Positions 2,096-27,807 are shown, counted from the stretch's first letter. The stretch is 31,074 nt of DNA from Octopus sinensis (GCF_006345805.1 NW_021833373.1:1-31074), one strand, 5' to 3'. A program made the numbers and translations. The notes: generated by a model from the sequence alone, not told the origin.

Positions 2096-2214
2096 GAAAA
2101 AAACAAAACACGAAGACAGGTGGTGTAGAAAACAACAGATGTATTAGTATAACACTCGGGAATTGAAAAAGTCTTTAACGTTTCGAGCCTACGCTCTTCC
2201 ACAGAAAGAAACAA

Positions 2215-2275
<61 letters not shown>
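1990..2275. repeat. (TA)n microsatellite interrupted by a ~120-bp element (2095-2216)
   Basis: TA runs at about 1990-2094 and 2217-2275 flank a unique insert. Confidence 0.95.
2172..2209 (-). ncRNA. minimal type I hammerhead-ribozyme-like motif (variant core)
   Basis: Minus strand reads TCTTT-CTGTGGAA-GAGC-GTAG-GCTC-GAAA-CG-TT-AAAGA: stem I 5 bp, stem II 4 bp, palindromic ACGT stem III. The core differs from CUGANGA (A6U plus an extra A). Confidence 0.55.
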
Positions 2276-2276
<1 letters not shown>

Positions 2277-2299
2277 GGTGTGTATGTGTGTATGTATAT

Positions 2300-2510
2300 T
2301 CTTTTCTTTTACATGTTTCAGTCTTTGACTGCGGCCATGCTGGAGCACCGCTTGAAGTGTTTTAGTCGAACGACTCAACCTTCATACCTGATTTTTTTCG
2401 AAGTCTGTTACTTATTCTATCGCTCTTTTTTGCTGAACCGCTAACTTACGGGACATAACCAAACTCCAGTTGTCAAAAGATAGTAGGGGACAAACACAAA
2501 GACACAGACT
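2300..2510 (-). mobile_element. 3' half of SINE family A
   Basis: TTTCAGTC...GACTGCGGCCATGCTGGAGCACCGC...GCTGAACCGCTAAC...GGGACAAACACA is the reverse complement of 12845-13045. Confidence 0.8.
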
Positions 2511-2599
2511 CACGAAGTTTATTGGAGATGGAGTTAAAATACATTCTACATTCTTTATGTGCAAAATCTTGAATGTTAACTTTTTTAGATTTAAACTCT

Positions 2600-3312
2600 G
2601 ATTCACATGGAGAAAACCGTTTCTTCTGATGTAATTGATTTGCTCATCAATCCTAAGTCAAATTGCTGAAGGCACGCAGATGAAAAGAAATTTGACATCG
2701 AACAAACAGCAAACCACCAGAATGACTGACTTTGGACTTCGGGGTGTATTTGGCTCCGTGAAGGGAAGACTCGTAAATTGACGTCAGTTATGGTTATGAT
2801 CATCGTAAATCCATATTCAGTTATGGTTATGATTAGGGTTAGGGTTAGGGTTTGGGTGGTCGTGACAGCCACTGGAAGGTCTCTCCTCGTTTTTGTGCTT
2901 TCAGGTGTTAAAATTAACACCCGACGATACATTAGCAACATTCTGGAAGCTGAACTGCTTCCATGAGCAAATGAACGCTTTCAAGGCGCACCTTGGAGTT
3001 TCCAACAGGAATTGGCACCATCCCACAGCTCCAAACAGATACAACACTGGGTTCAGAAAGAAAACATTCCGTCGTTCAAAGACAAGTATGCGAGGCCCTC
3101 AAAAAGTCCCGATCACAACCCGTTGGGTTTTTGTTTGGTCCATTTTGGAAACGAAGTTCTCGAGCACTCCTCATGCTTCGCTCGACACTTTGAAGGCAAA
3201 ATTGCGCCAGGAACGGGCTTCGATTCCACAAGAACAGCTATGTGTTGTGTGTGAAGCACTCGCACCTAGACTTAAGGCTGTGATTCGAAACAGAGGTGGT
3301 CATATTGAATAA
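2600..3312 (+). pseudogene. decayed Tc1/mariner (maT/DD37D-like) transposase
   Basis: Motifs across frames: SVMV..W..VTATGRSLLVFV.GVKIN..YI..ILEAELLP, QQELAPSHSSK..Q.W, PSKSPDHNPLG, VWSILETK...SLDTLKAKL...RLKAVIRNRGGHIE*. Frameshifted, with catalytic Asp positions mutated. Confidence 0.85.
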
Positions 3313-3504
3313 ATGTGGTAGGGGCATAATTGTTTTCTTTTTTCATTGCATTGCAGCACTCGGACCCGAAATATAACAATATTTTGTTTCGGTAAAATTG
3401 AAAAAAAGTTGGTTGCTTTAATTATAGGGGCATATATTATATATACAAATATAATAAGTACAGAGCAAAAGATTTGTTCAAGAAATTGTCTAATTATTAT
3501 TTGG

Positions 3505-3767
3505 ACATACATACATACATACATACATACATACATACATACATACATAGGTAGACAGACTGACAACATGCACAGACAGACAGACGCGCGATCATTTTCA
3601 CAAATAGACACACAAGACACACAAAACAGATAGGCAGGTAGGCAGACAGACAGACATCCAGACTGACAGACATACAGACAGGCAGGCAGACAGACTGACT
3701 GACTGACAGACAGACATACAGACAGACACATAGATAGAGAGAGAGACAGACAGACAGACAGACAAAC

Positions 3768-3848
<81 letters not shown>
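3505..3848. repeat. compound tetranucleotide microsatellite (ACAT)n/(AGAC)n/(AGAT)n
   Basis: Read directly from the sequence. Confidence 0.95.
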
Positions 3849-4149
3849 CGAAATGAGATGACAGGAGATAAGATGTATATCTTGTAAGGAACTTCTTAGG
3901 GAATGGATCATACGTGAATGCTTTTAACAAGTGGACGGAAGAAGTGGTTGAGAGGGTTTGGCTGTGTGTAGTGGAAGCAACATTTAAGAATGACCGGAAA
4001 CGTTAACGAAACAATCTGTTTATAAATAAAAGATCACAGCAGTTGATTCTTGATATACAAATAGTTTATATTGTCAGCGGTGAGAAACCATGATAGAAGG
4101 TGACGGTGCTGCGTGATAGGTGGGGTGCGGGGCGATAGGTGCGGCTGAG

Positions 4150-5330
4150 GTAGTGGTGGTGGTGGTGGTGGTGGTGGTGGTGGTGGTGGTGGTGGTGGTG
4201 GTGGTGACGGTGGTGATGGTGGTGGTGCTGGTAATGCAGTGGTATGTTTATGTTGATATTTGAAGTCAGGGTGGAGGTGCTAGTTATAATGGGGGAGAGG
4301 AGTTAGTCAAAGTGGTGGAGATGAGGGGTTGTGGTGGTGTAGGTTGAGGTGGTGGTGGGGTAGTGGTAGCGGTGGGGTGTAGCAGTGGAAGTGGTAGTAG
4401 TAGTAGTGGTAGTGGTGGTGGTGGTGGTGCTGCTGCTGCTGCTCAAGTGTTTATGTTTTTGGTAGGTTAGGGATGGTAGGGTGTAATGTCGGTCATATGT
4501 TCGTGGTGCAGGTGGTGGTGTGGTGACACTGACGGTGGTAGTAGTGGCGGTGGTGGTGGCGGTGATGGTGATGGTGGTGGTGGTGGTGGTGGCGGTGCTG
4601 CTGGTGCTGGTGCTGCTGGTGCTGGTGCTGGCGGTGGTGGTGTGGCGTTGGGGTGGCAGGGTGTGGTGGGGGAGTGGGGTGATAGTGGTGGTCGTGGTGG
4701 TGGTGGTGGTGCTAGTGGTAGCGGTAACGGTGGCAGCGGCCTCGGCGATAGTGGTGGTTGGTGTTGGTGGTGGTGTGGTGGTGGTGTGGTGGTGATGGTA
4801 GTTGTAATGCGGTGATGTATTGGTGTAGCGCGTCGATGTGGCGTTCTTTATGATGCTAGCGGTGCTGGCGGTGTGGTGTTGATGGTTGTGATATTGATGG
4901 TGATGCTGGTGGCAGTGGTGGTGGTGGTGGTGATGGTGGTGGTGGTGGTGGTGGTGGTGGTGATGGTGGTAATGGCGGTGATGGTATTGGTTAGCGCGTC
5001 GATGGTGGCGTTCTTGATGATGCTAGTGCGTGTTGCGGCGGTGGTGGTGTTGATGGTTGTGATATTGATGGTGATGCTGGTGGCAGTGGTGGTGGTGGTG
5101 GTGATGGTGGTGGTGGTGGTGGTGGTGGTGGTGATGGTGGTAATGGCGGTGATGGTATTGGTGGTAGCGCGTCGATGGTGGCGTTCTTGATGATGCTAGC
5201 GGTGCTGGCGGTGGTGGTGTTGATGGTTGTGATATTGATGGTGATGCTGGTGGCAGTGGTGGTGGTGGTGGTGATGGTGGTGGTGGTGGTGGTGCTAGTG
5301 GTGGTGGTGGTGGTGGTGTGGTATTGGTGG
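4150..5330. repeat. (GGT)n-rich low-complexity tract including three ~170-bp tandem units (about 4815-5320)
   Basis: AGCGCGTCGATGGTGGCGTTCTTGATGATGCTAG...GTGATATTGATGGTGATGCTGGTGGCAGTGG recurs near 4827, 4993 and 5166. Confidence 0.9.
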
Positions 5331-5812
5331 TTCATCTATAAGACTAAACACTTTTGTCATTGCCGTCGGAGTTTAACAGAAGAAAGAAAAATGACTGCTA
5401 TTTCTAACAGATCTAGTGACCACGTCGATATACCTTTATGGTTACTTTCATGTTATTGTTATTGTTGTTGTTTCCAAGGACTGGTTATGGTAGCGGTGAT
5501 GGCGGTGATAGTTTTTGAAAAAGAAAGCTGTGTGATGACATTGGAATTACTTTAAAGAAATCCAGACGATATTATAAAGTCAAAATCAGAAACCAAGTTG
5601 GCAAAACTCCCCAGTGTGTGTGTGTGTGTGGTGTGTGTGTGTGTGTGTCTGTCTGTCTGGTAGCCTGTGCGCGCACGCAGTGAGGATTCGACAAACGTGA
5701 ACCTCACAAAACATCTTAATTCGTATAAATGATGCTTTTAATCTCTGAGAGCGCTCCATAACTAGTTAGAATGAAAAGTATATGTATATTATCACATATA
5801 TATGTATGTATG

Positions 5813-5907: not shown

Positions 5908-5962
<55 letters not shown>

Positions 5963-6059
5963 CGACTAAACATAAATGTGAAACAAGGTGGAAAAAAAAG
6001 AGTACTCAAATACCAGTGGTAGAGTAATATGCTTTATTTAAAGCAGCAGAAAATTCAAC

Positions 6060-6107
6060 AAAAACTGTTACTCTGAGTTTCACGTTCCCGTTTATCGGAC
6101 AGTTTTT
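6060..6107 (-). ncRNA. type I hammerhead copy, probably inactive (G8A)
   Basis: Minus strand reads AAAAACTGT-CCGATAA-ACG-GGAA-CGT-GAAA-CTC-A-GAG-TA-ACAGTTTTT, with a 9-bp stem I. Confidence 0.65.
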
Positions 6108-6144
6108 GCTAGAATAGAACCGACATATCGGTTCTATTCTAGCA

Positions 6145-6190
6145 AAAACTGTCCGATGAACGGGAACGTGAAACTCAGAGTAACAGGTTT
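6145..6190 (+). ncRNA. type I hammerhead ribozyme, U4C core variant
   Basis: CTGT-CCGATGA-ACG-GGAA-CGT-GAAA-CTC-A-GAG-TA-ACAG: all three stems pair, loop II is GNRA, and cleavage is predicted after GUA at 6182. Confidence 0.75.
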
Positions 6191-6216
6191 CGTTGAATTT
6201 CTGCGCTTTAAATAAA

Positions 6217-6282
<66 letters not shown>

Positions 6283-7415
6283 CTAGCTGGTGTACCCGGT
6301 AATTCCCGGAGGTAAAGATGTTCTATTGAAACGCCTTATTACTCTGATATAAGAAAGCAATTCCGTTATAACTGCCACGAAAGGTGTATTTTCCGTCACG
6401 AAAAAGTACAAAAACTACCAGCTGAAGGATGGAGAGATTGTTGGAGGCTGGTGAGAGAAGTTTTCGGAGGTTGGCGAGAGGCAAAGACATTATTCTGCTT
6501 CGCGAATGCATCTGGGAAATGTATAACTGTCATTCACAGAAAAAACTATTGTTTTACCGTGAGAAAAGCGCTGTTGAAGTGTTAAGTGAAATTAGGCAAT
6601 CAAGAATCTAATCCACGCTATGCCTGCATGAAGCCACTACAAATACGTTGTGGAATAAAACATTATCTACTGTCATGGAAAAAGTGTAACTGTAAAAATG
6701 CAGAATTATCGGAGTAATGGGCATTCAAAACAGTATGTATGTATAGAAATGTATGAATGAAGTCTTCAAGGTTTAAGATTCAAATTAAGGAAGTGCAATA
6801 ATAATGTGTAGCAGTTCAAAACTGTGAGTAGTGAAATGCAAAATTAGGTCGGCTGATCGTGAGAATCAAATGTTGATCGCTTCGCTACAATCTGCAGGTG
6901 GTATGGGTTATTTCCCTTGGGTTGTTTAAATAAAATATTAATAATATGTAGTAGATGGAAAGATCCATTGGAAGGGCCCTATTATCGATTTTTTTCAAGA
7001 GTTTAAGTATGTCACGAGATTTCCAGACATGAGTTCTACTCACGTGTCAAATAAAGTATAAAAGTGATATTGTCTACAAAAATTAGAAATAGGACACTAA
7101 AAAAAATCAATATTCAAAGTAATCGAACATAAACAATGAAATGGGTTATTTCCCTTGAGTGTTTAAAAATATTGTACAGGTGCTATGGGTTATTTCCCTT
7201 GGGTGTTTAAAAAATTAGTTATATGAGGTAAATATAAAGGTCCCTTCCAGGGGCTGTATTATCTATGTTTTCAACAATCTAAGTACGTCACGAGGTTTCC
7301 AGACATGAGTTTTACTCACGTGTGAAGTTTCATTAAAATCAATAAAACAACGTAGGAGGAGTTAGATAACAATGCCACAAACAAACACACACCGATTTTC
7401 CACATATGTAGTAGA
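6283..7415 (-). mobile_element. non-autonomous Helitron family 1 (~1.13 kb)
   Basis: Minus strand 5' A|TCTACTACATATG and 3' CCGG-GAATTA-CCGG hairpin followed by CTAG|T, with no TSD. Internal GGGAAATAACCCAT repeats. Copies at 10585-11706 and 13493-14610. Confidence 0.8.
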
Positions 7416-7419
7416 TTTA

Positions 7420-7474
<55 letters not shown>

Positions 7475-7479
7475 TGTGT

Positions 7480-7620
7480 TCAGCTTATGGAACATCTGAA
7501 TGTTTCTGGGTCTTCTCAGCCAATACAACGGGAGATGGATTCCAAGAAACCCTGCTAGAAGTAGCAGTTATTCACAAGGGGTTGGATATAAATGAAACGA
7601 ACATGGAAAATTAAGCCAGC
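7480..7620 (+). pseudogene. possible hAT transposase fragment
   Basis: ECFWVFSANTTGDGFQETLLEV...GLDI resembles the ExFLGF...TTGxxL...L...GLDI segment of hAT/Tip100-type transposases. Short and degenerate. Confidence 0.3.
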
Positions 7621-7827
7621 GCGTTTATATAGAAGTGAACAATTCCAGTTTTACTGAGAAAGTAAAATACCTCCAGATTGTTTGACTAGTAATGATATTA
7701 ACATAGAATATTCAGTATGTTCTGAGAGCAATTATATAAACATATACACATACATACATACATACATACATACATACATACATACATACATACATACATG
7801 CATGCATGCATACATACATACATACAT

Positions 7828-7866
<39 letters not shown>

Positions 7867-7883
7867 CATAGATACATAGATAC

Positions 7884-7971
<88 letters not shown>

Positions 7972-8369
7972 ACAGACAGACGGACAGACATATAAGCATG
8001 CGTGCGTACGTATATGTGTATATAAGGAAGAGAGAGAGAGAGGGAGAGTGAGTGTGTGTGAGAGAGAGAGGGGAAAGGAGAGGAGAGGGAAAGATCGGCA
8101 GAAAGGAAAATAAAATACAATCGATTTTGTTTGAAGGCATACCAGGTGAAGGCATAATTTGTTAATTGCATAACATTTCGAAATACTGAACGTTTTAGCA
8201 TCAAATCTTTGTCAAATTGATAAGTTAATTATAGTTGCAGAGCAGCAGAACAACGTGAGTACGCGAAGCAAACATCTTAGCCCTTGCTTGCATCTCTATC
8301 CTTACTTACCTATGAATGCTCCCATCTCCTATTAGCATAATATTGGAAGAAGTGTAAAAACATGGTATA

Positions 8370-8569
8370 AGATGTAGGATAAACTGCTCAAATGGTTCTC
8401 TTTAGAGAAATCCCTATCCCTACTAATCTACACTCGTTATGCCGATAACATAAACATTGTGATTAAAGCCACTGTACAAAAGAAATCTGGAAAATAACAA
8501 CACTCTATGGAAAACATCCGGCAGATAGCAAACTCCATCCGCGAAAGCATTAAAGTTACCATTCATTGC
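8370..8569 (+). pseudogene. Penelope-like reverse transcriptase fragment
   Basis: One frame reads M*DKLLKWFSLEKSLSLLIYTRYADNINIVI...*QHSMENIRQIANSIRESIKVTIHC. YADN (8438-8449) corresponds to the YxRYVDD motif, and the partner copy continues PSKH. Confidence 0.6.
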
Positions 8570-8610
8570 GGTTGTTTAGCAAGCTACTTACCACACAGCC
8601 ACTCTGCGCC
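8570..8610 (-). mobile_element. 5' 41 bp of a family A SINE at an inversion breakpoint
   Basis: Minus strand GGCGCAGAGTGGCTGTGTGGTAAGTAGCTTGCTAAACAACC. The last 22 nt are identical to 12653-12674. Confidence 0.85.
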
Positions 8611-9487
8611 TATGTCTTTTTTTTTTAATAAGTATAACTTACACAATACAGACTCGATGGAACTGCATGTTTTTCTCTTACATCGATTTTCAGTTTTGTT
8701 TTATGTTGCACTCTCCTAAATTTGTTAACCGTTTCACTCTGAATGTAACCCCGATAAACATCGAACTTAGCAATTTGTTGTTATCTTACCTAGAATTTTT
8801 CTTGTCTAATCTTTACCTGTTTTTTTTATTAGTTTGTTCCAGAACCTGCTCCGGTACATGTATCGTTGCTGACGATTATTTCAATTTTTTTTTACCCCTT
8901 TATATTCTCTGATACGATCTCACTAGTTACATCCAGAGAATTGCGTAAAGTGGATGAAATCCTACACATGCTTTCTCTGTTTGCACGACGGACACGCGAA
9001 ATACGTTTCTCCTGGTCATCACAGGGTCTTTTATTAAGGTTTTTATGTTTGCATTTGTTAACATAGCAGGTAGGTTGAGGACCAGGTACATAGTGGCTAT
9101 AGGTTTCATTTAATGCGAGTGGAGAATTTGTTTCATGCTACTTGAAATTTTTAGCTATAATTCCGTATCAAGAACGAGTAGTCTTGTGTTAGGAAATATC
9201 TATTAGCGACAGAGAGGGCATTAACACGGAGAAGTAATATTTAACCGCACTTAACGTGGATGTTCTGTTAGAACAAACTATACTGCGATAGATAGCATGA
9301 GAGAAACTCTCATGTTGGCTTTTGGTGCAAAATGCTCTCTTGTTTATATTGTTAGCGGGGAGATAAATCCTCATCACCTCCAGCGTCGAAATAATCAGAT
9401 AACGTGATTTCGACCTTCCTTGGTCTTGTCAATGATGGACGCTCGATCGCTAGAGATAGCAGCGATTCATCTCCGCGCCAGCAGAGC

Positions 9488-9700
9488 GTGTTTGGATGGG
9501 CAATGAATGGTAACTTTAATGCTTTCGCGGATGGAGTTTGCTATCTGCCGGATGTTTTCCATAGAGTGTTGTTATTTTCCAGATTTCTTTTGTACAGTGG
9601 CTTTAATCACAATGTTTATGTTATCGGCATAACGAGTGTAGATTAGTAGGGATAGGGATTTCTCTAAAGAGAACCATTTGAGCAGTTTATCCTACATCTT
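9488..9700 (-). pseudogene. Penelope-like RT fragment (inverted copy, slightly longer)
   Basis: Reverse complement of 8370-8569, extending to ...SIKVTIHCPSKH. Confidence 0.6.
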
Positions 9701-10092
9701 ATACCATGTTTACACTTCTTCCAATATTATGCTAATAGGAGATGGGAGCATTCATAGGTAAGTTAGGATAGAGATGCAAGCAAGGGCTAAGATGTTTGCT
9801 TCGCGTACTCACGTTGTTCTGCTGCTCTGCAACTATAATTAACTTATCAATTTGACAAAGATTTGATGCTAAAACGTTCAGTATTTCGAAATGTTATGCA
9901 ATTAACAAATTATGCCTTCACCTGGTATGCCTTCAAACAAAATCGATTGTATTTTATTTTCCTTTCTGCCGATCTTTCCCTCTCCTCTCCTTTCCTCTCT
10001 CTCTCACACACACACTCACTCTCCCTCTCTCTCTCTCTTCCTTATATACACATATACGTACGCACGCATGCTTATATGTCTCTGTCCGTCTG

Positions 10093-10133
<41 letters not shown>

Positions 10134-11705
10134 GTATCTATCTATCTATGTGTCTGTCTGTCTGTCTGTCTGTCTGTATGTATGTATGTATGTATGCATG
10201 CATGTATGTATGTATGTATGTATGTATGTATGTATGTATGTATGTATGTATGTATGTATGTATGTATGTGTATATGTTTATATAATTGCTCTCAGAACAT
10301 ACTGAATATTCTATGTTAATATCATTACTAGTCAAACAATCTGGAGGTATTTTACTTTCTCAGTAAAACTGGAATTGTTCACTTCTATATAAACGCGCTG
10401 GCTTAATTTTCCATGTTCGTTTCATTTATATCCAACCCCTTGTGAATAACTGCTACTTCTAGCAGGGTTCTTGGAATCCATCTCCCGTGTATTGGCTGAG
10501 AAGACCCAGAAACATTCAGATGTTCCATAAGCTGAACACACACACACACACAACACACACAACACACACACACACACGCATAAATCTACTACATATGTGG
10601 AAAATCGGTGTGTGTTTGTTTGTGGCATTGTTATCTAACTCCTCCTACGTTGTTTTATTGATTTTAATGAAACTTCACATGTGAGTAAAACTCATGTCTG
10701 GAAACCTCGTGACGTACTTAAATTGTTGAAAACATAGATAATACAGCCCCTGGAAGGGACCTTTATAACTAATTTTTTAAACACCCAAGGGAAATAACCC
10801 ATAGCACCTGTACAATATTTTTAAACACTCAAGGGAAATAACCCATTTCATTGTTTATGTTCGATTACTTTGAATATTGATTTTTTTTAGTGTCCTATTT
10901 CTAATTTTTGTAGACAATATCACTTTTATACTTTATTTGACACGTGAGTAGAACTCATGTCTGGAAATCTCGTGACATACTTAGACTCTTGAAAAAAATC
11001 GATAATAGGGCCCTTCCAATGGATCTTTCCATCTACTACATATTATTAATATTTTATTTAAACAACCCAAGGGAAATAACCCATACCACCTGCAGATTGT
11101 AGCGAAGCGATCAACATTTGATTCTCACGATCAGCCGACCTAATTTTGCATTTCACTACTCACAGTTTTGAACTGCTACACATTATTATTGCACTTCCTT
11201 AATTTGAATCTTAAACCTTGAAGACTTCATTCATACATTTCTATACATACATACTTTTTTGAATGCCCATTACTCCGATAATTCTGCATTTTTACAGTTA
11301 CACTTTTTCCATGACAGTAGATAAATGTTTTATTCCACAACGTATTTGTAGTGGCTTCATGCAGGCATAGCGTGGATTAGATTCTTGATTGCCTAATTTC
11401 ACTTAACACTTCAACAGCGCTTTTCTCACGGTAAAACAATAGTTTTTTCTGTGAATGACAGTTATACATTTCCCAGATGCCTTCGCGAAGCAGAATAATG
11501 TCTTTGCCTCTCGCCAACCTCCGAAAACTTCTCTCACCAGCCTCCAACAATCTCTCCATCCTTCAGCTGGTAGTTTTTTGTACTTTTTCGTGACGGAAAA
11601 TACACCTTTCGTGGCAGTTATAACGGAATTGCTTTCTTATATCAGAGTAATAAGGCGTTTCAATAGAACATCTTTACCTCCGGGAATTACCGGGTACACC
11701 AGCTA

Positions 11706-11706
<1 letters not shown>
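9500..11706. repeat. right arm of the inverted duplication (homology resumes at 12557-12654 after Helitron insertions)
   Basis: Reverse complement of 6283-8569. Confidence 0.95.
10585..11706 (+). mobile_element. non-autonomous Helitron family 1, copy 2
   Basis: A|TC start at 10585, hairpin at 11680-11693, CTAG|T at 11703-11706. Confidence 0.8.
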
Positions 11707-11750
<44 letters not shown>

Positions 11751-11755
<5 letters not shown>

Positions 11756-12123
11756 GGCAGTTTGTCTGTGCGTGTTTCTGTGTGTCTGTTTGCTTGTACC
11801 CTCACCCTAACCACCGCTTTCAACCGATTCTGATGAAACTTGACACACACATAGCCCAATGTCATAATTCAAAACTAACGCAGCGAAAATTTTGAAAAGT
11901 TCCCCCAGTTCTGAAAAAAATCGATAAATTCGACATGGGGTCGAGAATCAGAAACACAAACCACAAACTGTCTAGGGGACGCAACTCCACCTTTTTTAAA
12001 TCTCAAAAAAAAAATTTACCATCATTTTTTTCCATTTTTTGCTATTTTTTGGCTATAACTCTCTAAAAATGCTTTATAGTTATTTCCCTTACAAACCTGA
12101 GCAACGCCGGGCGATACTGCTAG
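11751..12123 (+). mobile_element. non-autonomous Helitron family 2 (~370 bp)
   Basis: 3' end CCTGAGCAACGCCGGG hairpin-like motif followed by CTAG|T. The 5' end merges into (TA)n and is followed by GTCTGT repeats and AACCGATTCTGATGAAAC. Confidence 0.75.
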
Positions 12124-12154
<31 letters not shown>

Positions 12155-12162
12155 TATATATA

Positions 12163-12535
12163 TAAACGGCAGTTTGTCTGTGCGTGTTTCTGTGTGTCTG
12201 TTTGCTTGTACCCTCACCCTGACCACGGCTTTCAACCGATTCTGATGAAACTTGACACACACATAGCCCAATGTCATAATTCAAATCTAACGCAGCGAAA
12301 ATTTTGAAAAGTTCCCCCAGTTCTGAAAAAAATCGATAAATTCGACATGGGGTCGAGAATCAGAAACACAAACCACAAACTGTCTAGGGGACGCAACTCC
12401 ACCTTTTTTAAATCTCAAAAAAAAATTTAGCATCATTTTTTTCCATTTTTTTGCTATTTTTTGGCTATAACTCTCTAAAAATGCTTTATAGTTATTTCCC
12501 TTACAAACCTGAGCAACGCCGGGCGATACTGCTAG
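12163..12535 (+). mobile_element. non-autonomous Helitron family 2, tandem copy
   Basis: Near-identical to 11751-12123, separated by (TA)n. Confidence 0.75.
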
Positions 12536-12556
12536 TATATATGTATATATATATAT

Positions 12557-12654
12557 ACTTTATTTAAAGTAGCAGAAAATTCAACAAAACCTGTTACTCC
12601 GAGTTTCACGTTCCCGTTCATCGGACAGTTTTTGCTAGAATAGAACCGATATGT
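12557..12654 (-). ncRNA. half-palindrome copy with U4C hammerhead (core 12591-12628)
   Basis: Reverse complement of about 6123-6219. Within the ribozyme core only the stem III loop base differs (A to G). Confidence 0.7.
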
Positions 12655-12797
12655 AAGTAGCTTGCTAAACAACCACATGGTTCCGGGTTCAGCGCCACTG
12701 CGTGGCATTTTGGGCAAGTGTCTTCTGCGATAGCCCCGGGCCGACCAATGCCTTGTGAGTGGATTTGGTAGACGGAAAGTGAAAGAAGCCTGTCGTA

Positions 12798-12844
<47 letters not shown>

Positions 12845-13066
12845 TTGTGTGTCTGTGTTTGTCCCCCTAGCATTGCTTGACAACCGATGCTGGTGTGTTT
12901 ACGTCCCCGTCACTTAGCGGTTCGGCAAAAGAGACCGATAGAATAAGTACTGGGCTTACAAAGAATAAGTCCCGGGGTCGATTTGCTCGACTAAAGGCGG
13001 TGCTCCAGCATGGCCGCAGTCAAATGACTGAAACAAGTAAAAGAGTAAAAGAGAGAGTAAAAGAGT
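12653..13066 (+). mobile_element. SINE family A, 5'-truncated at a rearrangement junction
   Basis: B-box GGGTTCAGCGCC, internal (TA)n/(TG)n, GAGTAAAA tail repeats. Confidence 0.9.
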
Positions 13067-13492
13067 TGACGAAAAATCCTGTGTGAGCACAACCAACCCT
13101 TAGATTAGCTGCCAAGCTAGAAATATATAGCGCATGACATGCAGGAAAAAGCATTGAAAGGATACAATCAGAATCTTTATAGAAGAGGCTTCTGCAGTAG
13201 GAGAAAGGATTGCAGAATATAGGTGTAAATACAATGAAACATAGAAATATTTATACTTTACAGATTAGACCTACGGAAACACAATGTGTTAACAAAGAAA
13301 GTTAACGTAAAAGTTCTTTCCACACACCCAAAAGACCCGAAAATTAAGACAGATTACAGGGGCTGCACGAATAGAGGAAACAAATATAGACACACACACC
13401 ACACACACACACGCACACACACACGCACACACACACACCACACACACACACAACACACACACACACACACACCACACACACACACGCATAAA

Positions 13493-15911: not shown

Positions 15912-15953
<42 letters not shown>

Positions 15954-16904: not shown

Positions 16905-16935
<31 letters not shown>

Positions 16936-18800
16936 ATCTAGAAATATAACCTCTGCTCTCTGGCCAAAGCTACAATTATCTTAGACAGAGTGAAAAAGAC
17001 AACTTCGACGGACACATCAATAAGAAACCAAGGAATGTCAAGGGAGCAAAAATAAAATATGGCCATCGGAACTCTCAGCTTACAACAAGTATATCGCCCA
17101 CAATACCTTTGCAGTGCATATCGACGCTCACATTTGGCGTTCTTAATTGGTCACTGCAACTCAGTGAGATAGATGTACAAGCTCGCAAACTAATCAGTTG
17201 TCACTGGAAACTTCAGCATCAATGAAGATGTAAACATGCTATACTTTCTACGCAAGGTTGTTGACCGTGGTCTCAAATCTGTGTCGATGTCATATGAAGC
17301 ACGCATTGTGGCATTGAAGCTACACCTGCTGCAAAGAAAAGAGATCGGTAACTATTTTCCCCAAGTTTTTGACCATGAAATCAACAAGATAATTAGGATA
17401 GCTAATGAACTTCAGGAGCGCATGAAATAAGAGTTGATACAGATCTCACCCCAAAGAGCACTGGTAAATTCTATCTATCAACAGAACAAATTAAAGTAGT
17501 GCATCGATATTTGGCACAGAAGATAAAAGTCAGAGAGGGATTTGACCATATCAAGAGATATGCTCTGGGGTACCGGCAAGTTTATGACACCTCACATCGA
17601 AGGATACCTTCATGCCATTCAAGAACAAGAGATCTCCACCAAGTACCTACAGCATAAAATACAGAAAACGTTGACAGACAACAGATGTAGACCGTGCAAA
17701 ACTAAAACTGAAGCCAGCAACCACACTATTGTCAACTGCGAGAGAATGTTCTCTAAATATTATCTTCCTGTAATGCATGATGCGCTGGCCAGAGCAGTCA
17801 GGAACAAGATAACAAAAAATGAAAAAAATATCTACAGATGAAGTTGACTATATTGAGACCATCGGTGAAACTTAGAAATTAAAACAGCCACCAGGTTAAA
17901 ACATAACATAATGTTGTGTGGGACCACAAGAAAAATAGCTTTGTTGCGGAAATCAGCAGCCCTCTGAACACCAACGTGATCAGAATGCAGAAGAAAGAAG
18001 TGGATATCTATGGACCACAGTAAAGAGTTTGCAAATTCAGTATCCAAGATACACTTTCAGCTTCATACCTATAATTATTTATTTAAATTTTTGGCACAAG
18101 GCCAGCAATTTCGAAGAAGGGGCTAAGTTGATCGCATCGACTGTAGTACTCAACTGGTACTTATTTTATCGCCCCAAAAAGGATCAAAGGCAAAGTTGAC
18201 CTCGGTAGAATTTGAGCTCAACATGAAGACGGACGAAATACCTATTTCTTTACTACACACAGAGGAGACAAACAAGAACAGACAAATGGAATAAGTCGAT
18301 TATATCGACCCCAGTGCGTAACTGGTACTTATTTAATCGACCCCGAAAGGATGAAAGGCAAAGTCGACCTCGACGGAATTTGAACTCAGAACGTAGCGGC
18401 AGACGAAATACCTATTTCTTTATTACCCACAAGGGGCTAAACACAGAGGAGACAAACAAGGACAGACAAACGGATTAAGTCGATTACATCGACTCCAGGG
18501 CGTAACTGGTACTTAATTTATCGACCCCGAAAGGATGAAAGGCAAAGTTCGGCGTCGGCGGAATTTGAACTCAGAACGTAACGGCAGACGAAATACGGCT
18601 ACGCATTTCGCCCGGCGTGCTAACAATTCAGGCACCTCGCTATCATGCTTCACACCTATAATTATTGGAAGCAACTTGATACTTACCAACCCGTCTGGAG
18701 CAAAGTATGACTGCACTTGGATTTTTAGGGAAGGAAGGCAACTCCTTAATTAATAGACAGCATATGATATCTGGGACAACAACGTTCTGTAAGACCTTAA
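16450..18800 (+). pseudogene. decayed R4/Dong-like (RLE-type) non-LTR retrotransposon ORF, interrupted by SINEs
   Basis: RT motifs KGILQCDSL (~16641), FFV/DLKLY, KFGESKCA, IWPSELSAYNK..AHNTFAV, LYFLRK..DRGLKSV. EGYLHAIQEQEISTK is followed by the CRPC..TE..NH..VNC zinc knuckle and HD. The endonuclease-region EISSP...FIPIII|G is split by the insertion. Many stops and frameshifts; boundaries approximate. Confidence 0.75.
18080..18646 (-). mobile_element. head-to-tail trimer of SINE family B
   Basis: Units at about 18080-18240, 18241-18410 and 18411-18646. Flanked by the 20-bp direct repeat GCTTCA(T/C)ACCTATAATTATT at 18060-18079 and 18647-18666. Confidence 0.85.
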
Positions 18801-21062: not shown

Positions 21063-21320
21063 GGCGAGCTGGCAGAATCGTTAGCAAAGGCGGCGAGCTG
21101 GCAGAATCGTTAGCACGTCGGGCGAAATGCTTAGCGGTATTTCGGCTGCCGTGACGTTGTGAGTTCAAATTCCGCCGAGGTCGACTTTGCCTTTCATCCT
21201 TTCGGGGTCGATAAATTAAGTACCAGTTATGCACTGGGGTCGATGTAATCGACTTAATACCTATGTCTGTCCATGTTTGTCCCCTCTATGTTTAGCCCCT
21301 TGTGGGTAATAAAGAAATAG
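21063..21320 (+). mobile_element. SINE family B, full length with duplicated 5' head
   Basis: GGCGAGCTGGCAGAATCGTTAGCA occurs twice, then B-box GAGTTCAAATTCC and tail ...GGTAATAAAGAAATAG. Confidence 0.9.
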
Positions 21321-21430
21321 GTATTTGAGGACAAATTTATTTTTCTAAAAATCGATACTTATCATAAAAGAAAACAACTTTATCGATGACAAAATGTGTT
21401 CATGTAAACTAGATTATTTTCTTTATAATC

Positions 21431-22442
21431 TTATTCAATGTAGTCATCTTCAACATCAGTAACTGCTTCTATGAGAGATCTGAATCGTCTATATGACCGT
21501 AATAAATGGTTTTGGTTCATATCGGACATTACTCTTGCTATGGTGGCTTTCAAAGAATCCTTGGTGTAATGCGGATGTTGATTAACCTCTCTCTCAACAA
21601 CGCTCCACATATAGTAGTCCAATGGATTGTGATCTGGTGAGTTTGGAAGCCAAATGTTAGGAGTTATGCGGTATGAACTTTATCAGCCATCCGTTCTTAA
21701 GTTGTTTGAGCATTATGTGATGGCGCAGATACCTGCTGAAATACGTACGGTATTCCTTCGTGTACTCTGTCTATGCAGGGCTTGACAACTGTTCCTAGGG
21801 CCTCAGTGTATCCTGCAGAATTAATTCTAAGGCTTTGTAGAAAGAAATGAGGAGGTATCACATGTCCGTCATTACAGACAACTCCAAAAGCTATGACAGT
21901 TGTAGGAAATTTTCTATGCATAACTGTTGGAACTTCAAAAGGGTCTGAACATAACCATCTGTCACTTTTCTGTTCATTTTCTGGTCCTGGTCAAAGTTTT
22001 TCTCATCTGAGAAAAACCGAATCATGCCACGTTCTTCTTGGTTTTTAACTTTGTTTTTTTACAACTGTTTAAACAGTTTTCCTTTGTTTTGTTTTATTTT
22101 CTGAGATTAATGAATTGACCTCTCCTCATCACGTAAGACTTGTGCCGGATCTTTCCATGAGCAACATTACTGATTGTCCCTTATGACACATGGGGATCTT
22201 TTGTTATTGACCTTATGAATATTTTGGGGGTTTCTGTCAGTGATTTCCTAAAGTTTGCTGAATAAATTATGGTATTCTAATGGTATCGGAGCGTTAGAAA
22301 TGCTTTTTGTATATCGATCCTGGTTACCTCTGAAGCTTCTAACTCGTTGCAAACAAGATCTCTACATCACTGTGCCCAGCCTTTAAGGCCACAATTACAG
22401 CACGCACCCACTCATTTCTTGGCTATGCTGAAGGTCTGCCAT
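21431..22442 (-). pseudogene. maT/DD37D-like transposase pseudogene
   Basis: FFSDEKNFDQDQK, HRKFPTTVIAFGVVCNDGHVIPPHFF, YVFQQVSAPSH (D to V), ITPNIWLPNSPDHNPLDYYMWS. The spacing between the second and third catalytic positions is 37 residues after correcting one 1-nt deletion. Confidence 0.85.
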
Positions 22443-22538
22443 TATTATTTTCTAAGACAAAAATGACATAAAGCAAATTTTAAAACACTATAACTCAAAA
22501 ATGTCGTGTTCTCAAATAACCTGTGCACCCCGCATATA

Positions 22539-24314
22539 TCTCTATATTATAATTCTGAAATGCGAAAAGTTTGTCTGTTTGTCTGGTTTTGGCATTGAAA
22601 ACGGGTTAAAGGCCACTAGATCCCGTCGGATTGGCTCCAAAATTTACAGGGACATGTAAAATGAGGTGAGGATGTTAGAAATCCCCATCTTAAAAGGTGT
22701 CGTTGCTAGGGCCAAAAACGCACTTTGACAAGTCTACTCTCATTTTTTTATGCATCTGTCTTCCTCCATCACTCACTCTCTTTCGTCCCTTCCTTTCAAT
22801 TTCTATCTATAACGTCGTTTCACAGCGCCTACCTCCCTTCTCTTCACTTTCTCTTTATAACGTCGTTTCACAGCGTCCTATATCTCCCCTCCCCGCCTTC
22901 GACAGCGCTTTCACACACTCTCTCTCTCTCTCTACGTCTGTCTGCATTCATAGAGAGAATTATCATCGCTACCACCACCACATAATCATGAGAACAAATA
23001 TTATGAATCAGATATTTATTGGGTTAATTTATATATGTGTGTGTGTCTATATATAAATATGTATATATAATGAATATATACAAAGTGTATATATCTGTAT
23101 TTATGTATATTAAACTTTTTAATACTTTTTGATAGTTATATATATTTTTTTAAAATTATAAATATAAATTAATGATTTTAATTTTAAATTTAAATAACTT
23201 AAATTTTTTAATTTTATATTTTATATATTTTGTGTATTATATTTTTATTTTTATGTTTTGGTTTATGTTTTTCACTGTTTGATTTGCCTAATAGTGGTTT
23301 TACTCTAATTTAATTTATATATATATATATATATATATATAAATTATATACATTGTATATATAATGCGTACACACACACACATATATATATAATGCGTAT
23401 ATATATATATATATAATGTGTGCATTATGTGGTCGGTTATGCTGAAAATAATGCCACCTATCTTAAAAGTGCTGGCGAGTTTGCATGGCACACTATTTTT
23501 GACCTCAAATGAAGGCGTGACCTCTAGGACAAAATTCCTCATCTTAAAATGTGGCCCGAGTAGACCCGAATGAAATCGGGTTATATTAACCAAAATGTGA
23601 AAAGAGGTCTAAATGGGGCTTGAAGGGGATTAAAATTTACAGGAGCAGGTTTTTTAGGAATTCTCTGTTACATCAAGTTAAAAATTTGCGCCAGCCTTTT
23701 AATCGATCGTGATGTATTGCCGTCCATGATGAAGAAGTTTTGAATGCTTGCCATGGTGAGTCTACTGTCGTGAGAAAGAATCACTTCAAAGCTTGGTGTC
23801 TAGGAATTTTCTTTTACATCAAGTTCAACATTTTACGCCAGCCGTTAAACTGCTACTACGTTGCTGTTCGTCGTTAAGAAATGCCAGCCATGGTGACTCT
23901 ACTATCCTCAGATTCTATCCCTTCAAACTTTTGTTTCCAATATTTTTTTTTATTTTTATTCAACTCGCAAGTTCGTCAGTCCCTTTTAAATGTTAGTGTT
24001 TTGCTGTCTGCCTTGAAGCAGACCTTTCCGTTGTCACTGCCTGATATTTATGATTGATCTTTCAAAATATATTCTTTCTCAACTTACTCAAGATCTTTTG
24101 TTGTTTATAAATGGGAGAGAGATAGATAGAGAAAGATAGAGAGTAAGAGAAAGCGAAGGAGAGTCCGAGAGAAAGGAAGAGTAAGAGAGTGGGAAAGTGA
24201 GAGAGAAAGGAGAGAGAAACAAAGAGGGAGAATGAGGTGATAAAAAACAGAAAGGAAGCAACAGAAAGTTACAACCACACTCTTACCCGCGCGTAGAGCG
24301 GTCACCTTAAGCTA

Positions 24315-24315
<1 letters not shown>
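22539..24315 (+). mobile_element. non-autonomous Helitron family 3 (~1.8 kb)
   Basis: 5' A|TCTCTATATTATAAT followed by GTCTGT repeats. 3' CCGCGCGTAGAGCGG hairpin followed by CTAG|T (24312-24315). Pairing of these two ends is inferred. Confidence 0.65.
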
Positions 24316-24382
<67 letters not shown>

Positions 24383-24383
<1 letters not shown>

Positions 24384-24914
24384 AATTCTAGTTCTAAAAT
24401 CTCTTTAAGAGATCAACGCAGTAGTTGTACTAATAAGTAATGTTCGTAGCCACTTCAACACCCCAAGAAGATATTTCTTCTAGCTGGTTAACGATGCACA
24501 GCTGCATCCGAGATATTGCGAGCAGGGGAACGAACCCCTACCACCTTCCAGTGATGGGACCAGTAAACCGTCCTTGATCTCTTAGAGAGATTTTAAAACT
24601 AGCATTTGTGCTTATTGCAAAATCAGCGACTGTATGCCACTTGGAATTTTATATATTGCGAGCAGAAGCGAGCTACTGCTATCTTTAGCAGGCGAAGTGT
24701 TCAATACTGAAGAGAGACTGAAATAGCCCGAAACCAGGCTGGTCTGCTGACCCCGTCAATAGAAGGTGGTAGGAGTTCGCTTCCCCTGCTCACAATATAT
24801 CGGATGCAGCTGTGAGGAGGCGTCCAGCTAGAGAAGACGTCTTCTTGAGTTTAAAAAATCGCAGTAAAGCTCATTCGAACTGACAGTCATGTTGGAGTGG
24901 CTGCGAACATTACT

Positions 24915-24915: not shown

Positions 24916-24945
<30 letters not shown>

Positions 24946-25218
24946 ACATACATACATACATACATACATACATACTACATACATACATACGTGCATGCAT
25001 GCATGCATGCATGCATGCATACATACATACATACATACATACATACATACATACATACATACATACATACATACATACATACATGTATATGCACACACCT
25101 GTCGAACGCTACCTGTGGGACACGAATCCTCAAACCTTGTAGTCCAACATCTTTGATCCAAAAGACTTTTTATTAACCCATTATTTACATGCTATTATTT
25201 ACAGCTTTATAAAAGCAG

Positions 25219-25382
25219 AGAGCTGGCAGAATCGTTAGCATACGGAACAAAATGCTTAGTAGTATTTCGTCCGTGTCTACGTTCTAAGTTCAAATTCTGC
25301 CTTTCATTCTTGCATCCTTTGAGCACTGGTGTCGATGTAATCGACTTAACACCTCCCTCTAATTGCTGGCCTTATGTCAGAA
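25219..25382 (+). mobile_element. older SINE family B, tail split by a Helitron (continues at 27303)
   Basis: GAGCTGGCAGAATCGTTAGCA...GTATTTCGTC...TTGCTGGCCTTATGTCAGAA | TAGAAAATTATT. Confidence 0.75.
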
Positions 25383-25480
25383 CTAGCAAATGCACCCGTC
25401 CTTTGGACGGTGTTATTTATTATAACGGTGCACTCCTGTGAACTGTTTAAGTTGAATAAACCCGCAGTTAGAAGTCGTTT

Positions 25481-25697
25481 GTGGAGGCGCATGGCTTAGT
25501 GGTTAGTGTGTCAGCATCATGATCGTAAGATTGTGGTTTCGATTCCTGAACCGGGCGACGCGTTGTGTTCTTGAGCAAAACACTTCATTTCACGTTGCTC
25601 CAGTCCACTCAGCTCGCAAAAATTAGTAACGCTGCGAAACCGGAAACCGGGCCAATGAGCCTGACTAGGCTTTAAAAGGGCGCATTTGTTTATTTTA
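25481..25697 (+). mobile_element. SINE family D head with tail Z, nested in the Helitron
   Basis: TGGCTTAGTGGTTAG and GGTTTCGATTCC boxes. 12-bp TSD TAGAAGT(C/G)GTTT at 25469-25480 and 25698-25709. Confidence 0.85.
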
Positions 25698-26249
25698 TAG
25701 AAGTGGTTTCAAGTTGGTAAACGTAAAATGTATAATTACCATTTTCGTCAACAGTTTATAATATGGTATTAAGCAACTTAGGTAATGAATAAAGTGTTTT
25801 GAACACAAATTTAGCAGTTAGTAATAAAGGAAAGGCCATAAAATGAGATCGCAATCGCAGTGGGCATTAGGGATCTTACCTATATCTTACCTGAAGCGTT
25901 TTGCATCATGTATGTATTTTTCTCGTAAAGCCTGACACAACCGCATTGAAGTTTTTTTTCAATGAAAGTAATTTATGAAAAAGAAAAGTAAACATTTATA
26001 GTAAACACACAAATAGAATAATGCCATGTACAAAAATAAATATTGGAGCGTGCCTATGGGCGAACAGCGTGTGTGAAGTAAGGAGGGTCATTGAAGGTAA
26101 TGTACTGTTAACAGCGATCAGGGAAATGAAGCAAAATATCAATGAAATACTTGCTAACGGCTACAGTTTGGCACATATATGAAGATTGCAGTAGAGGAAT
26201 AACTACTGTAGGGCTGCTTTGTAGACGACATTCTTGGTTTTTCCTTCTG

Positions 26250-27185
26250 GAGTATAGAGGAATAAGCTGCCTGGATGGCCAACACTGGGACAACCGACGT
26301 AGAACTGACCATGTGGAAAGAACTACTTTCGAAGGTCCAATCCAACAACATTCAAGTACTGACCTTGTGGTTTGTTAATTGTCAGGGATAAGCTGAGTTT
26401 AAGAGGAAACTGTTGTCTCTGCATAGGGTAAGAGCAGTCTGTTGGGGTTAGCGGAATTTTCGGAATGAAAACGGTATCGTTTTCGCCGTGTCTCGTGATA
26501 ATTTGGGCTTCAATGACGTGGTCCATCATTTGACTGCAATGCAAGTTCCATTGCATAGTGTGGGTGCGTTTAGATTTCGTAGGAAGATGACAGAGCAACC
26601 GTCTTTTAAATTAAGTTCATGGGGAGAGAGTCCTGGAAGATCTTGGGAGTTGAGAAATTCTGTTGGAAAGTGTATAACCTGATCGAGGCCAGTAACCTTG
26701 TCAACTGATCTGTAACAACGTTCTTGAGAAGGTAGCTAACTGAGTAAGTTGTAGTTAAGAGTGTTGACAGCTGCATTTGTAGGTGCAAGAACAGCTTTGC
26801 CGTGAAGCCAATCTGATTTTATAGATTCCGTTGTAAAATTTGAGTAAACGGCGGAACATAAGTCATCAGGACTGGAGAGTGTGGCCAATGGTGGTCCGTT
26901 GTTGTCGGACGTAATTTGTCTATTGCCGAATTTAAGGAGCATTTCCGAAAACTGGGTTGTAGGCTGACCAGTCTGTAGGAGTGATCTCATGTTGATGGTG
27001 AGTTGTTTCGATCGGACAAGCGACCAAAGGAGGGATTTTATAAGACAGGTATTAAGTGCATCAGCGGGGCATTTTGGGTCTAATTGGCAGCGTTTGACGA
27101 AAATCTCCTGCAAGAAGTAGAGTCGCACCTCCGAGGATGTTGTTGTTCACTTTAAGGTCTCTCATTATGTTATCAAGTAAATGGC
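26250..27185 (-). pseudogene. Pif1-family (Helitron RepHel) helicase C-terminal remnant
   Basis: GGATLLLAGDFRQTLP, LWSLV..KQLTINMR, AVLAPTNAAVNTLN, LRNLNAPTLCNGT, VFIPKIPL...RQQFPLKLS.SLTINKPQGQ.L.VVGLDL, HGQFYVG. Frameshifted. Confidence 0.92.
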
Positions 27186-27242
27186 CTGTCACATATGCGC
27201 ACACACACACACGCTCACACACACACACACACCACACACACA

Positions 27243-27281
<39 letters not shown>

Positions 27282-27743
27282 TTCTGTCTTATATATTATA
27301 GATAGAAAATTATTATTTATACCTTTATATGTAGTTCGAGAACCAATTCTCAAAATGGATTATTCCACATTCTCTCGAAAGTTTATAAATTCTGATGACG
27401 TCAAACAACAAACCTATATATGTGTAAACACGGCAATGAAATATGCCTTTTATCATATATACTTCCCATGGCTTCGCCTAGAGGAGTCAAAGGATGTTAT
27501 GTTATTCCATACATCAACGACATACTAGGTTTTTATTATGAATGAACCTGATTACGACTTAAGCCATGGCTCTTAGTCTGTATTCTGCATTTTGTAATCC
27601 ATGTAAATGTACGTATTAAGTGTCCTTGTGTTTACCTGCGTTTGTAATCACACACACACACAAACACACACACACAACACACACACACACACACACACAC
27701 AAATTTATATTTTGTGTCAAATTTTTCTCGAGGGCTAATCGAT

Positions 27744-27807
27744 TATAGATCACTGATGAGCTGAAATTACTGTGAAATATAGACATACAGCGAAATATCG
27801 ACATATA
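27744..27807 (+). ncRNA. minimal type I hammerhead ribozyme with canonical core
   Basis: TATAGATC-A-CTGATGA-GCTG-[24 nt]-CAGC-GAAA-TA-TC-GACATATA. Loop II contains an 18-nt duplication, stem III is the palindrome ATAT, and stem I is imperfect. Confidence 0.6.

Follow-up and report, generated by a model that had tools for sequence, protein, structure and literature searches.

Hammerhead ribozyme motifs of a 31-kb Octopus sinensis contig probably derive from Penelope-like elements and retrozyme-like units, with U at core position 6 in one abundant family

Contig NW_021833373.1 of the Octopus sinensis assembly GCF_006345805.1, analysed here over its full length of 31,074 nt (the window), is an entire 31-kb contig of a 2.72-Gb genome, is rich in microsatellites (76 tandem-repeat rows) and contains four different type I hammerhead ribozyme motifs, termed H1 to H4. 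The original prediction, made from the sequence of the window, had placed these motifs beside microsatellites and attributed them to a diverse set of ribozyme-bearing non-autonomous retroelements. Both the places of the motifs and those of the microsatellites are confirmed, and each of the four belongs to a dispersed repeat family of the genome. With a probability of roughly 0.8, two protein-coding Penelope-like elements (PLEs), one Neptune-type and one Hydra-like, account for H1 and H2 as their hammerhead-bearing 3′ ends, and the enzymes of such PLEs likely copied the short non-coding units H3 and H4 in trans. The expected connection of the hammerheads to PLEs and retrozymes is therefore borne out, while the non-autonomous status holds for H3 and H4 only, H1 and H2 being linked to PLE coding frames. 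Hammerheads in PLE ends beside (TA)n, octopus included, have already been published, and most of what follows is known biology; the fixed U at core position 6 of H1 is the variant worth testing. Genome-wide, first-look candidates numbered 2,626 for H1, 959 for H2, 832 for H3 and 67 for H4, and the best 40 of each were scored. Exact family patterns matched 15,228 times for H1, 4,826 times for H2 and 14 times for H3, which is an old family, and reversed-pattern controls gave 0 matches.

In the H2 family, hammerhead and coding frame are found joined within single loci. The window insertion at 5960–6217 has the standard form of the family, consisting of a tail arm, an inversion and a short arm. 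Its forward arm (6126–6217, plus strand), corresponding to the pseudo-long terminal repeat (pLTR) end of a Hydra-like PLE, carries the hammerhead at 6145–6190, which belongs to a subfamily with C in place of U at position 4 (U4C; core CCGATGA, C3 at 6153, H17 at 6182, stem III ACTC-A-GAGT). The predicted cut lies after 6182, and the arm is followed by (TA)n at 6218–6282. The inverted arm (5960–6123, minus strand) bears the one-sided tail (~5960–6031) and a hammerhead at ~6060–6107 whose G8 is mutated to A. A single U4C arm with stem III ACTC-G-GAGT is located at 12553–12651 (minus strand), and its duplicate at 15035–15133 (minus strand). The three further copies of H2 that had been predicted thus exist but are not independent, as one is the inverted arm and two lie in a segmental duplication of 97–98% identity. 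Elsewhere in the genome, locus L121 joins a reverse transcriptase (RT) thumb, a GIY-YIG endonuclease, a 1.25-kb untranslated region (UTR), the H2 hammerhead and the tail. Locus L159 shows the layout pLTR (1656–1749), open reading frame (ORF, 1835–3997), pLTR (5019–5112) and (TA)n, with the H2 tail running on into the ORF's beginning. The H2-linked endonuclease, used as a query, yielded 18,317 first-look candidates, 150 of which were scored at ≥85% identity. Among 30 loci found by the endonuclease alone (some of them near-duplicates), 27 have H2 within 1.5 kb, and RT/GIY-YIG ORFs of 721–766 aa are present in at least seven of the ten loci fetched for long frames.

As read from these ORFs, the H2 protein contains RWK and DKT, CxxC and CxH around E and N, no IFD and no CCHH in the endonuclease; 1,710 homologues were found at E≤1e-20 among 7,999 scored, and Pfam did not detect the Hydra-like ORF. 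The single ORF with RT and C-terminal GIY-YIG, the motifs RWK, DKT, CxxC and CxH, the lack of an IFD and the (TA)n target are shared with Hydra-clade PLEs (Craig et al. 2021, PMC8557442), although both this assignment and the Neptune assignment of H1 were made by comparing reference proteins by eye. Stem III (ACTC-n-GAGT) and stem I (CTGT/ACAG) correspond to the hammerhead of Hydra-2_aMil as printed there. The hammerhead of Hydra-1_Obim is different, and H2 hence represents another family; the one printed in PMC8557442 for this octopus element (as Hydra-1_oBim) is nearly identical to the hammerhead of a separate locus, L055, in keeping with an octopus as the likely source. Unlike the published members of the clade, which are generally <3 kb, the H2 unit extends to ~3.36 kb due to a UTR of 1.0–1.25 kb, and its large U4C subfamily and very high copy number set it apart as well. 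Position 4 is the canonical U in 9 of 12 ORF-intact copies, and the first 100 genome-wide matches listed comprise 57 U, 40 C and 3 other bases. In loci L031–L162, loop II reads GGAA, GCAA or GAAA, all of them GNRA tetraloops, and position 11.1 is T, A or G.

The ends of H2 copies follow a fixed pattern. Counted from the predicted cut, the end falls at exactly +42 or +108 in 41 of 46 ORF-selected segments. A head-to-head partner accompanies H2 in 15 of 25 independent loci, and (TA)3+ follows 35/36 short ends and 28/34 tail ends. PLE insertions are described as partial tandems, inverted copies and copies with a one-sided tail at (TA)n targets (PMC8557442), and all three structures, i.e., pLTR partial tandems, inverted 5′-truncated copies and the one-sided tail, are seen for H2. 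H2 accordingly appears to be the pLTR of an autonomous Hydra-like PLE and the window copies its remnants, with no separate non-autonomous family. No sequencing run containing H2 is listed on record as RNA; contigs from four runs merely guessed to be RNA span the pLTR/ORF junction, with (TA)n loose ends at both 3′ termini, and provide no evidence on expression or cleavage. Two further observations concern H2 loci. In L121 (4720–5592, minus strand), a truncated H2 element is joined head-to-head to another GIY-YIG frame that differs from its own (Pfam E=0.00058), a junction that possibly reflects a template switch between two PLE families. In addition, (TA)n occurs inside the 3′ UTR of H2 elements, ~170 nt upstream of the cut site (L121:7600–7685 and L159:4880–4895). 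Part of the “flanking” TA is therefore carried by the element, and PLEs may seed microsatellites besides targeting them.

The H1 copy of the window (2096–2216, minus strand) corresponds to the 5′-truncated 3′ end, or pLTR, of a Neptune-type PLE and lies between (TA)n runs at 1988–2094 and 2217–2275; the best 40 of the 2,626 candidates match it at 94–100%. Its minimal type I hammerhead (2172–2209, minus strand) carries U at core position 6 and is predicted to be cut after 2177. C3 is located at 2204 and H17 at 2177, the core reads CTGTGGA plus an extra A, stem II is GAGC/GCTC and stem III ACGT. Long H1 copies were traced upstream to an endonuclease C-terminus, and this coding piece was used to find 30 loci, 21 of which contain H1 on the same strand 650–900 nt downstream of the endonuclease end. 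The broken frames upstream of H1 comprise an RT, a CxxxxCxxC linker and a GIY-YIG domain, with the linker and endonuclease residues CSRPRCRTC ... IYCISCSLCHSLYIG ... EH ... RHF recurring across many broken copies, and homologues of the H1-linked protein are annotated RVT_1 and GIY-YIG. Compared by eye, the RT3-4 and the CxxxxCxxC/GIY-YIG regions agree with the Neptune rows in Figs S1 and S2 of Craig, and the frames show the Neptune combination of a CX2-5CxxC linker, a C-terminal GIY-YIG with CCHH and no IFD. Structures of PLE type are present in the form of 5′ truncation and an inverted copy in L225, and (TA)3+ follows 58/71 H1 3′ ends. The RT3-4 layout and the Zn-finger linker before GIY-YIG resemble those of Neptune-clade PLEs (PMC4209133; Neptune1_Nv and DrerioNep1 rows in Craig). 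So do the short stem I, the extra nucleotide after A9, the G10.1-C11.1 pair and the palindromic minimal stem III of the hammerhead, as well as the predominance of solo truncated copies. Unlike in the Neptune hammerheads described there, U replaces A at core position 6 across the H1 family, and most H1 copies are 190-nt units whose 5′ edge is sharp. H1 would thus represent the 3′ end of an autonomous Neptune-type PLE, again surviving as a remnant and forming no separate non-autonomous family.

Two observations at L193 touch on these families. A Neptune-type ORF beside H1 in this locus was rejected as the partner of H1, as other repeats intervene and the ORF ends in a different hammerhead; the region at 2990–5250 (minus strand) is another Neptune-type PLE with its own hammerhead (stem III ACCGGT). 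A distant relative of H3, with core CCGAGGA and stem III ACCA-T-TGGT, is found at ~5420–5650 (minus strand) of the same locus.

Core position 6 of H1 is T in 14,676 of the 15,228 exact matches, a departure from the hammerhead core, which has A at this position. Among the first 100 listed of the 552 matches with another base there, 67 have C, 24 A and 9 G, a pattern of random decay without an A6 subfamily. Position 7, which is free in hammerheads, varies in H1 (the first 100 matches listed comprise 48 T, 23 A, 17 C and 12 G), and the register of the core is thereby fixed. An alternative register (UNGAAGA) was discarded, as it requires a 2-nt insertion before GAAA and a sister family aligns with H1 base for base. 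This sister family has stems and downstream sequence in common with H1, carries A6 in 10/10 copies and stands on a 100/99 branch of the H1 tree, in which the order of the subfamilies is not resolved. Relative to the sister family, no compensating change was seen in H1. Published work indicates that A6C lowers hammerhead activity (k<0.1/min; PMC3088659), and a natural A6C hammerhead cuts well in Mn2+ and much more slowly in Mg2+ (PMC7151607). A literature search that did not extend to Lunse et al. 2017 or to the Cervera 2014 alignments (Fig 2D and supplement), either of which may already show a U6 hammerhead, returned none; the sole A6U match concerns twister and was set aside as a precedent. 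Self-cleavage of H1 is predicted to be further impaired by U6.

Alternatively, the U6 core could be a fully functional natural variant, dependent on a metal or a protein and kept by selection for cleavage. Consistent with this idea, the majorities of five H1 subfamilies differ only at N7 within the 27 columns from C3 to U16.1, as opposed to 15/76 downstream columns, although this difference (one-sided p=0.039) is weak and partly circular, the copies having been picked by part of the same region. The Mn2+-active A6C hammerhead and the hammerhead of PAc, a Poseidon element of Anolis, which cuts only with protein (PMC11167929), point in the same direction. The lowered activity of A6 variants and the lack of compensation relative to the A6 sister argue otherwise, none of seven incidental H1 copies starts at the cut site, and the conservation may serve protein binding instead. 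Full function of the U6 core is therefore regarded as doubtful.

H3 and H4 show a different organization. The forward H3 unit (24578–24914, plus strand) is retrozyme-like, with a decayed hammerhead with a long stem I at ~24690–24760 (C3 at 24707, C17 at 24744, canonical core CTGAAGA, stem III ACCAG-G-CTGGT), and terminates at the proximal 3′ end, followed by (TA)n. Its inverted arm (24383–24574, minus strand) starts ~9 nt before the predicted cut and reaches the distal (tail) 3′ end, where (TA)n follows (24316–24383). Stems I and II are broken in the window copy and intact in the family majority. The old retrozyme-like H4 unit (27702–27960, plus strand) is preceded by (CA)n at 27649–27701 and has its hammerhead at ~27741–27815 (C3 at 27753, H17 at 27805); in this copy loop II contains a duplication of 18 nt and stem I is broken. 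The family majorities of both fold into full type I hammerheads whose long stem I is interrupted. The H3 units measure 361 and 341 nt, with 42–43% GC and a longest ORF of 38–44 aa; they are arranged head-to-tail in 11/29 loci and inverted in 10/29. H4 has a period of ~337 nt (unit ~340 nt), with head-to-tail copies in 3/29 loci and inverted copies in 7/29. In both families unit ends pass directly into unit starts without an ORF between them, the tandem arrays seen are only ~2 units long, and pairwise identities (~80% for H3, 70–80% for H4) mark them as old. The 3′ ends of H3 segments cluster at +164..175 (21/63) and +221..241 (24/63), i.e., ~61 nt apart, and the second end falls in the start of the next unit, which constitutes the H3 tail. 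This arrangement would correspond to the tail pattern of PLEs, produced on a template that is tandem or circular.

The non-coding tandem units of 150–450 bp with low GC and a type I hammerhead that define retrozymes are matched by H3 and, on the basis of period and tandems, by H4. H3 and H4 are therefore likely decayed copies of non-coding, non-LTR-retrozyme-like units. They resemble metazoan non-LTR retrozymes (PMC7229834; bioRxiv 10.64898/2026.07.22.740005) in their non-coding head-to-tail units of 340–360 nt, GC below 45% (as computed for H3), type I hammerheads with a long stem I and occurrence alongside autonomous PLEs; mussel retrozymes measure 350–390 bp (PMC7229834), and it has been suggested that retrozymes travel as passengers of PLEs (Li et al. 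2026, bioRxiv 10.64898/2026.07.22.740005). Unlike these, the arrays are short and old, stem III is a long palindrome and the H4 majority is U4C. Two fixed 3′ ends together with inversions, as in H3, were not found described for retrozymes in the literature covered. H3 and H4 might instead be pLTRs of autonomous PLEs that were not found, or have been multiplied by tandem duplication of DNA without RNA circles. The stem III of H3 (4–5 bp around one base) does resemble published Hydra-clade hammerheads, the arrays span only ~2 units, and the scored copies are the best 40 of 832 and 40 of 67 candidates. This explanation is nevertheless unlikely, because the units abut without an ORF and the tail of H3 is the start of its next unit, and the fixed 3′ ends and inversions of H3 point to reverse transcription rather than to duplication at the DNA level. 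A side observation concerns the H3 inverted arm of L065 (G000:C5:117.43 Mb), which abuts a coding fragment at stem I; by its motifs, this fragment is presumably an N-terminal coding piece of R4/Dong type.

The inverted partners and the two fixed 3′ ends ~60–66 nt apart that H2 and H3 have in common can be read as a PLE insertion signature. In PAc (PMC11167929), the limits of the tail are set by two internal RT starts, uncut RNA serves as the dominant template and the target is AT-rich, with insertions spanning the hammerhead cut as in H2 and H3. The octopus families belong to other clades and have tails of 61–66 nt as opposed to 30–40 bp, and the H2 start codon lies downstream of the tail, whereas that of PAc lies inside the hammerhead. 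By analogy with the published PAc mechanism, a PLE protein would nick TA-rich DNA and reverse transcription would start at two internal sites just 3′ of the hammerhead. Early stops and strand switches would then give rise to short arms, hairpins and the one-sided tail. The ~190-nt, sharp-edged H1 copies likely represent starts in the 5′ pLTR that ran to the 5′ end of the transcript, and the template of H3 and H4 was likely an RNA in multimeric or circular form. Minimal palindromic hammerheads have low activity even as dimers (PMC4209133), and the minimal ribozymes of H1 and H2 would be expected to cut slowly, as dimers or with the help of protein; with U6 impairing cleavage further, the H1 lineage likely spread mainly from uncut RNA. 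Nearly all copies of H1, H2 and H3 span the predicted cut site. Use of the 5′ ends as evidence for cleavage in vivo was abandoned, as neither H3 nor H2 nor the incidental H1 copies show a significant pile-up at this site, including none for H2. Copies that span the cut without such a pile-up of 5′ ends fit the uncut-template model.

Several observations weigh against the derivation of the four families from PLEs and retrozyme-like units. No intact H1 ORF was seen among the examined loci. The H2 linker reads CNFKNESSC, with Phe for the second Cys (CNFx5C instead of CxCX5C), which is why the term “Hydra-like” is used. Folding of six natural copies yielded none that clearly beats shuffles (z −1.6 to +1.4), and for H2–H4 the hammerhead is not the minimum free energy fold. 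An autonomous partner of H3 or H4 was not found among the examined loci, (TA)3+ follows only 4/12 H3 short ends, and only 4/63 H3 5′ ends lie near the cut site (p=0.12). The covariation check suggested by the original prediction was negative for H3, with 210/500 shuffles scoring as high, and weak for H4, where 12/500 shuffles were as high by score and 210/500 by pair counts, with several two-sided changes. Poor covariation is expected for copies decaying from a few masters; covariation accordingly offers no positive support. Finally, the H1 5′ edge falls at −92..−98 in 20/30 copies, the −92 bound being forced by the search pattern, and at −94..−97 in 12/33 copies of a sample picked on the 3′ part, of which only 3 are longer. 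This sharp edge could equally fit a true non-autonomous derivative.

All four families might be independent non-autonomous ribozyme elements, the 190-nt H1 being a SINE-like family with master copies of its own. Such a view accommodates the predominance of H1 copies of ~190 nt with the cut site in mid-unit and a sharp 5′ edge near −97, as well as the large excess of short over ORF-bearing copies. It is improbable, however, given that H2 lies on both sides of intact ORFs, that H1 is continuous with the Neptune-type endonuclease through the 650–900-nt UTR, and that the long endonuclease-linked H1 copies show the same G7 and A7 core states as the short ones. PLE truncation by itself predicts short copies lacking an ORF.

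Chance was addressed with a relaxed type I descriptor allowing C/U at position 4 and A/U at position 6, with 200 block-wise dinucleotide shuffles as the control. In the window it matched four times in two families (H1 and three H2 copies), compared to a shuffle mean of 0.02 and a maximum of 1; a strict descriptor gave 0 matches in the window, in agreement with the expectation that non-canonical cores escape strict searches. Relaxing position 9, which had also been proposed, is unnecessary, since PLE hammerheads have been described with this extra nucleotide, located between 9 and 10.1 (PMC4209133). Rfam listed no hammerhead among 117 window matches at E≤5, a search that neither confirms nor refutes the motifs, and none at gathering score in six loci. 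Chance matches in microsatellite-rich DNA can be dismissed and are already refuted at the family level: single copies do fold no better than shuffles, and the H3 and H4 window copies are too decayed for either descriptor, but the excess over shuffles, the thousands of exact genome matches without any in the controls and the near base-for-base agreement of H2 with a published Hydra layout in stems I and III leave chance a negligible share.

The canonical core CUGANGA / GAAA / UH at a three-way junction is present in the H3 majority and the ORF-intact H2 subfamily, while the window H2 subfamily and the H4 majority depart from it by U4C. This change is an already described natural variant (PMC3088659) and recurs in several unrelated hammerhead families of the genome, namely the H1 sister family (L064, L015, L029, L182), the H2 subfamily and the H4 majority. 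Stem III had been described as palindromic or closed by a single base in all four motifs, which is correct for H1, H2 and H3; the ATAT of H4 was a misreading, its family stem III being the 10-nt palindrome ATATCGATAT. Predicted stem III self-duplex energies amount to −1.7 (H1), −7.4 (H2), −16.6 (H3) and −9.1 kcal/mol (H4). At least 12 distinct hammerhead clusters among the fetched loci attest to the diversity that had been anticipated. Nine arbitrary 10-kb stretches (90 kb, a sample too small for a rate) contained no descriptor and no family match, and the four families in 31 kb suggest a density above the genome average.

The Penelope-like RT relic mentioned without coordinates in the original prediction corresponds to a weak PLE-like relic at ~8340–9720 (minus strand), with a RYxDD motif, a thumb region and a ~290-nt insertion; it is not the partner of H1 or H2. 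It has six genome matches, the five others at 68–73%. Its homologue L255 weakly matches a Neptune-type RT profile (iE 0.002–0.005), and the window relic itself has no match to this profile, to a Pfam RT or in a database. No similarity to the H1 or H2 frames and no link to H3 or H4 were seen. The relic appears to be old and unrelated to H1 or H2; besides the weak profile match of the homologue, its PLE identity is assumed from sequence motifs. An assignment to Naiad was not supportable, and the homologue appears to have a downstream Cys linker. The relic stands at the centre of a 5.5-kb inverted repeat (6236–8569 vs 9500–11752), and tandem segmental duplications follow (10536–12141 vs 13442–15039; 12119–13488 vs 14606–15983). 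All three are 95–98% identical with many small indels; they may be genuine, or error-prone long reads may have created them on this small, unplaced contig.

Further repeats occupy the remainder of the window. A broken non-LTR retrotransposon at 16460–18080 (plus strand) combines an RT, a CCHC finger (zf-RVT, E=0.0034) and restriction-like endonuclease motifs, contains (TA)n at 16908–16935 and is presumably a LINE of R4/Dong type. A broken Helitron-type PIF1 helicase (Pfam E=0.0051) lies at 25900–27180 (minus strand). Non-coding elements with a terminal hairpin and CTAG beside (TA)n are found at 6283–7400 (minus strand), 11753–12120, 12165–12535, 14653–15022 and 22535–24315; one is a 412-bp tandem pair, they share (TA)n runs with H2 and H3, and by this signature they are likely non-autonomous Helitrons. 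Transposase fragments with a SPDHNP motif and no Pfam match (2866–3312, plus strand; 21430–22500, minus strand) are assumed to be Tc1/mariner-like. Abundant SINE-like families with many copies in the window and the loci are located at 300–800, 1720–1990, 12654–13050, 18117–18640, 21086–21330 and 29734–30110, and a short broken coding fragment at 30110–30500 (minus strand) presumably represents the C-terminal part of an RTE-type LINE.

An annotation of octopus repeats from 2026 reports 190 families of Penelope-like type, and neither “ribozyme” nor “hammerhead” occurs in its main text (PMC13282606). With a strict CUGANGA search, almost all H1 copies would be overlooked, together with a large part of H2. 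The end pattern of H3 adds sequence evidence for the proposed mobilization of retrozymes by PLE enzymes. The role of hammerheads in PLEs has been stated to be unclear (PMC8557442), and in one reconstituted PLE the ribozyme is dispensable in vitro (PMC11167929); a very abundant U6 family beside an A6 sister makes this function testable with short RNAs. A bolder scenario is put forward tentatively: a Neptune-type lineage would have fixed A6U and then amplified in several rounds, to at least 14,676 exact-match copies in which position 7 takes all four bases, whereas the stems and the remaining core were retained, with U6 being either a working variant dependent on an element protein or a non-Mg2+ metal, or part of a fold that serves as a non-catalytic RNA handle. 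In the same scenario, H3 would be a retrozyme, and its insertions would directly document two-site internal priming of PLE type on circular or multimeric RNA. If this were true, the H1 U6 family and its A6 sister would constitute a natural pair with which the need of PLEs for ribozyme cleavage could be tested.

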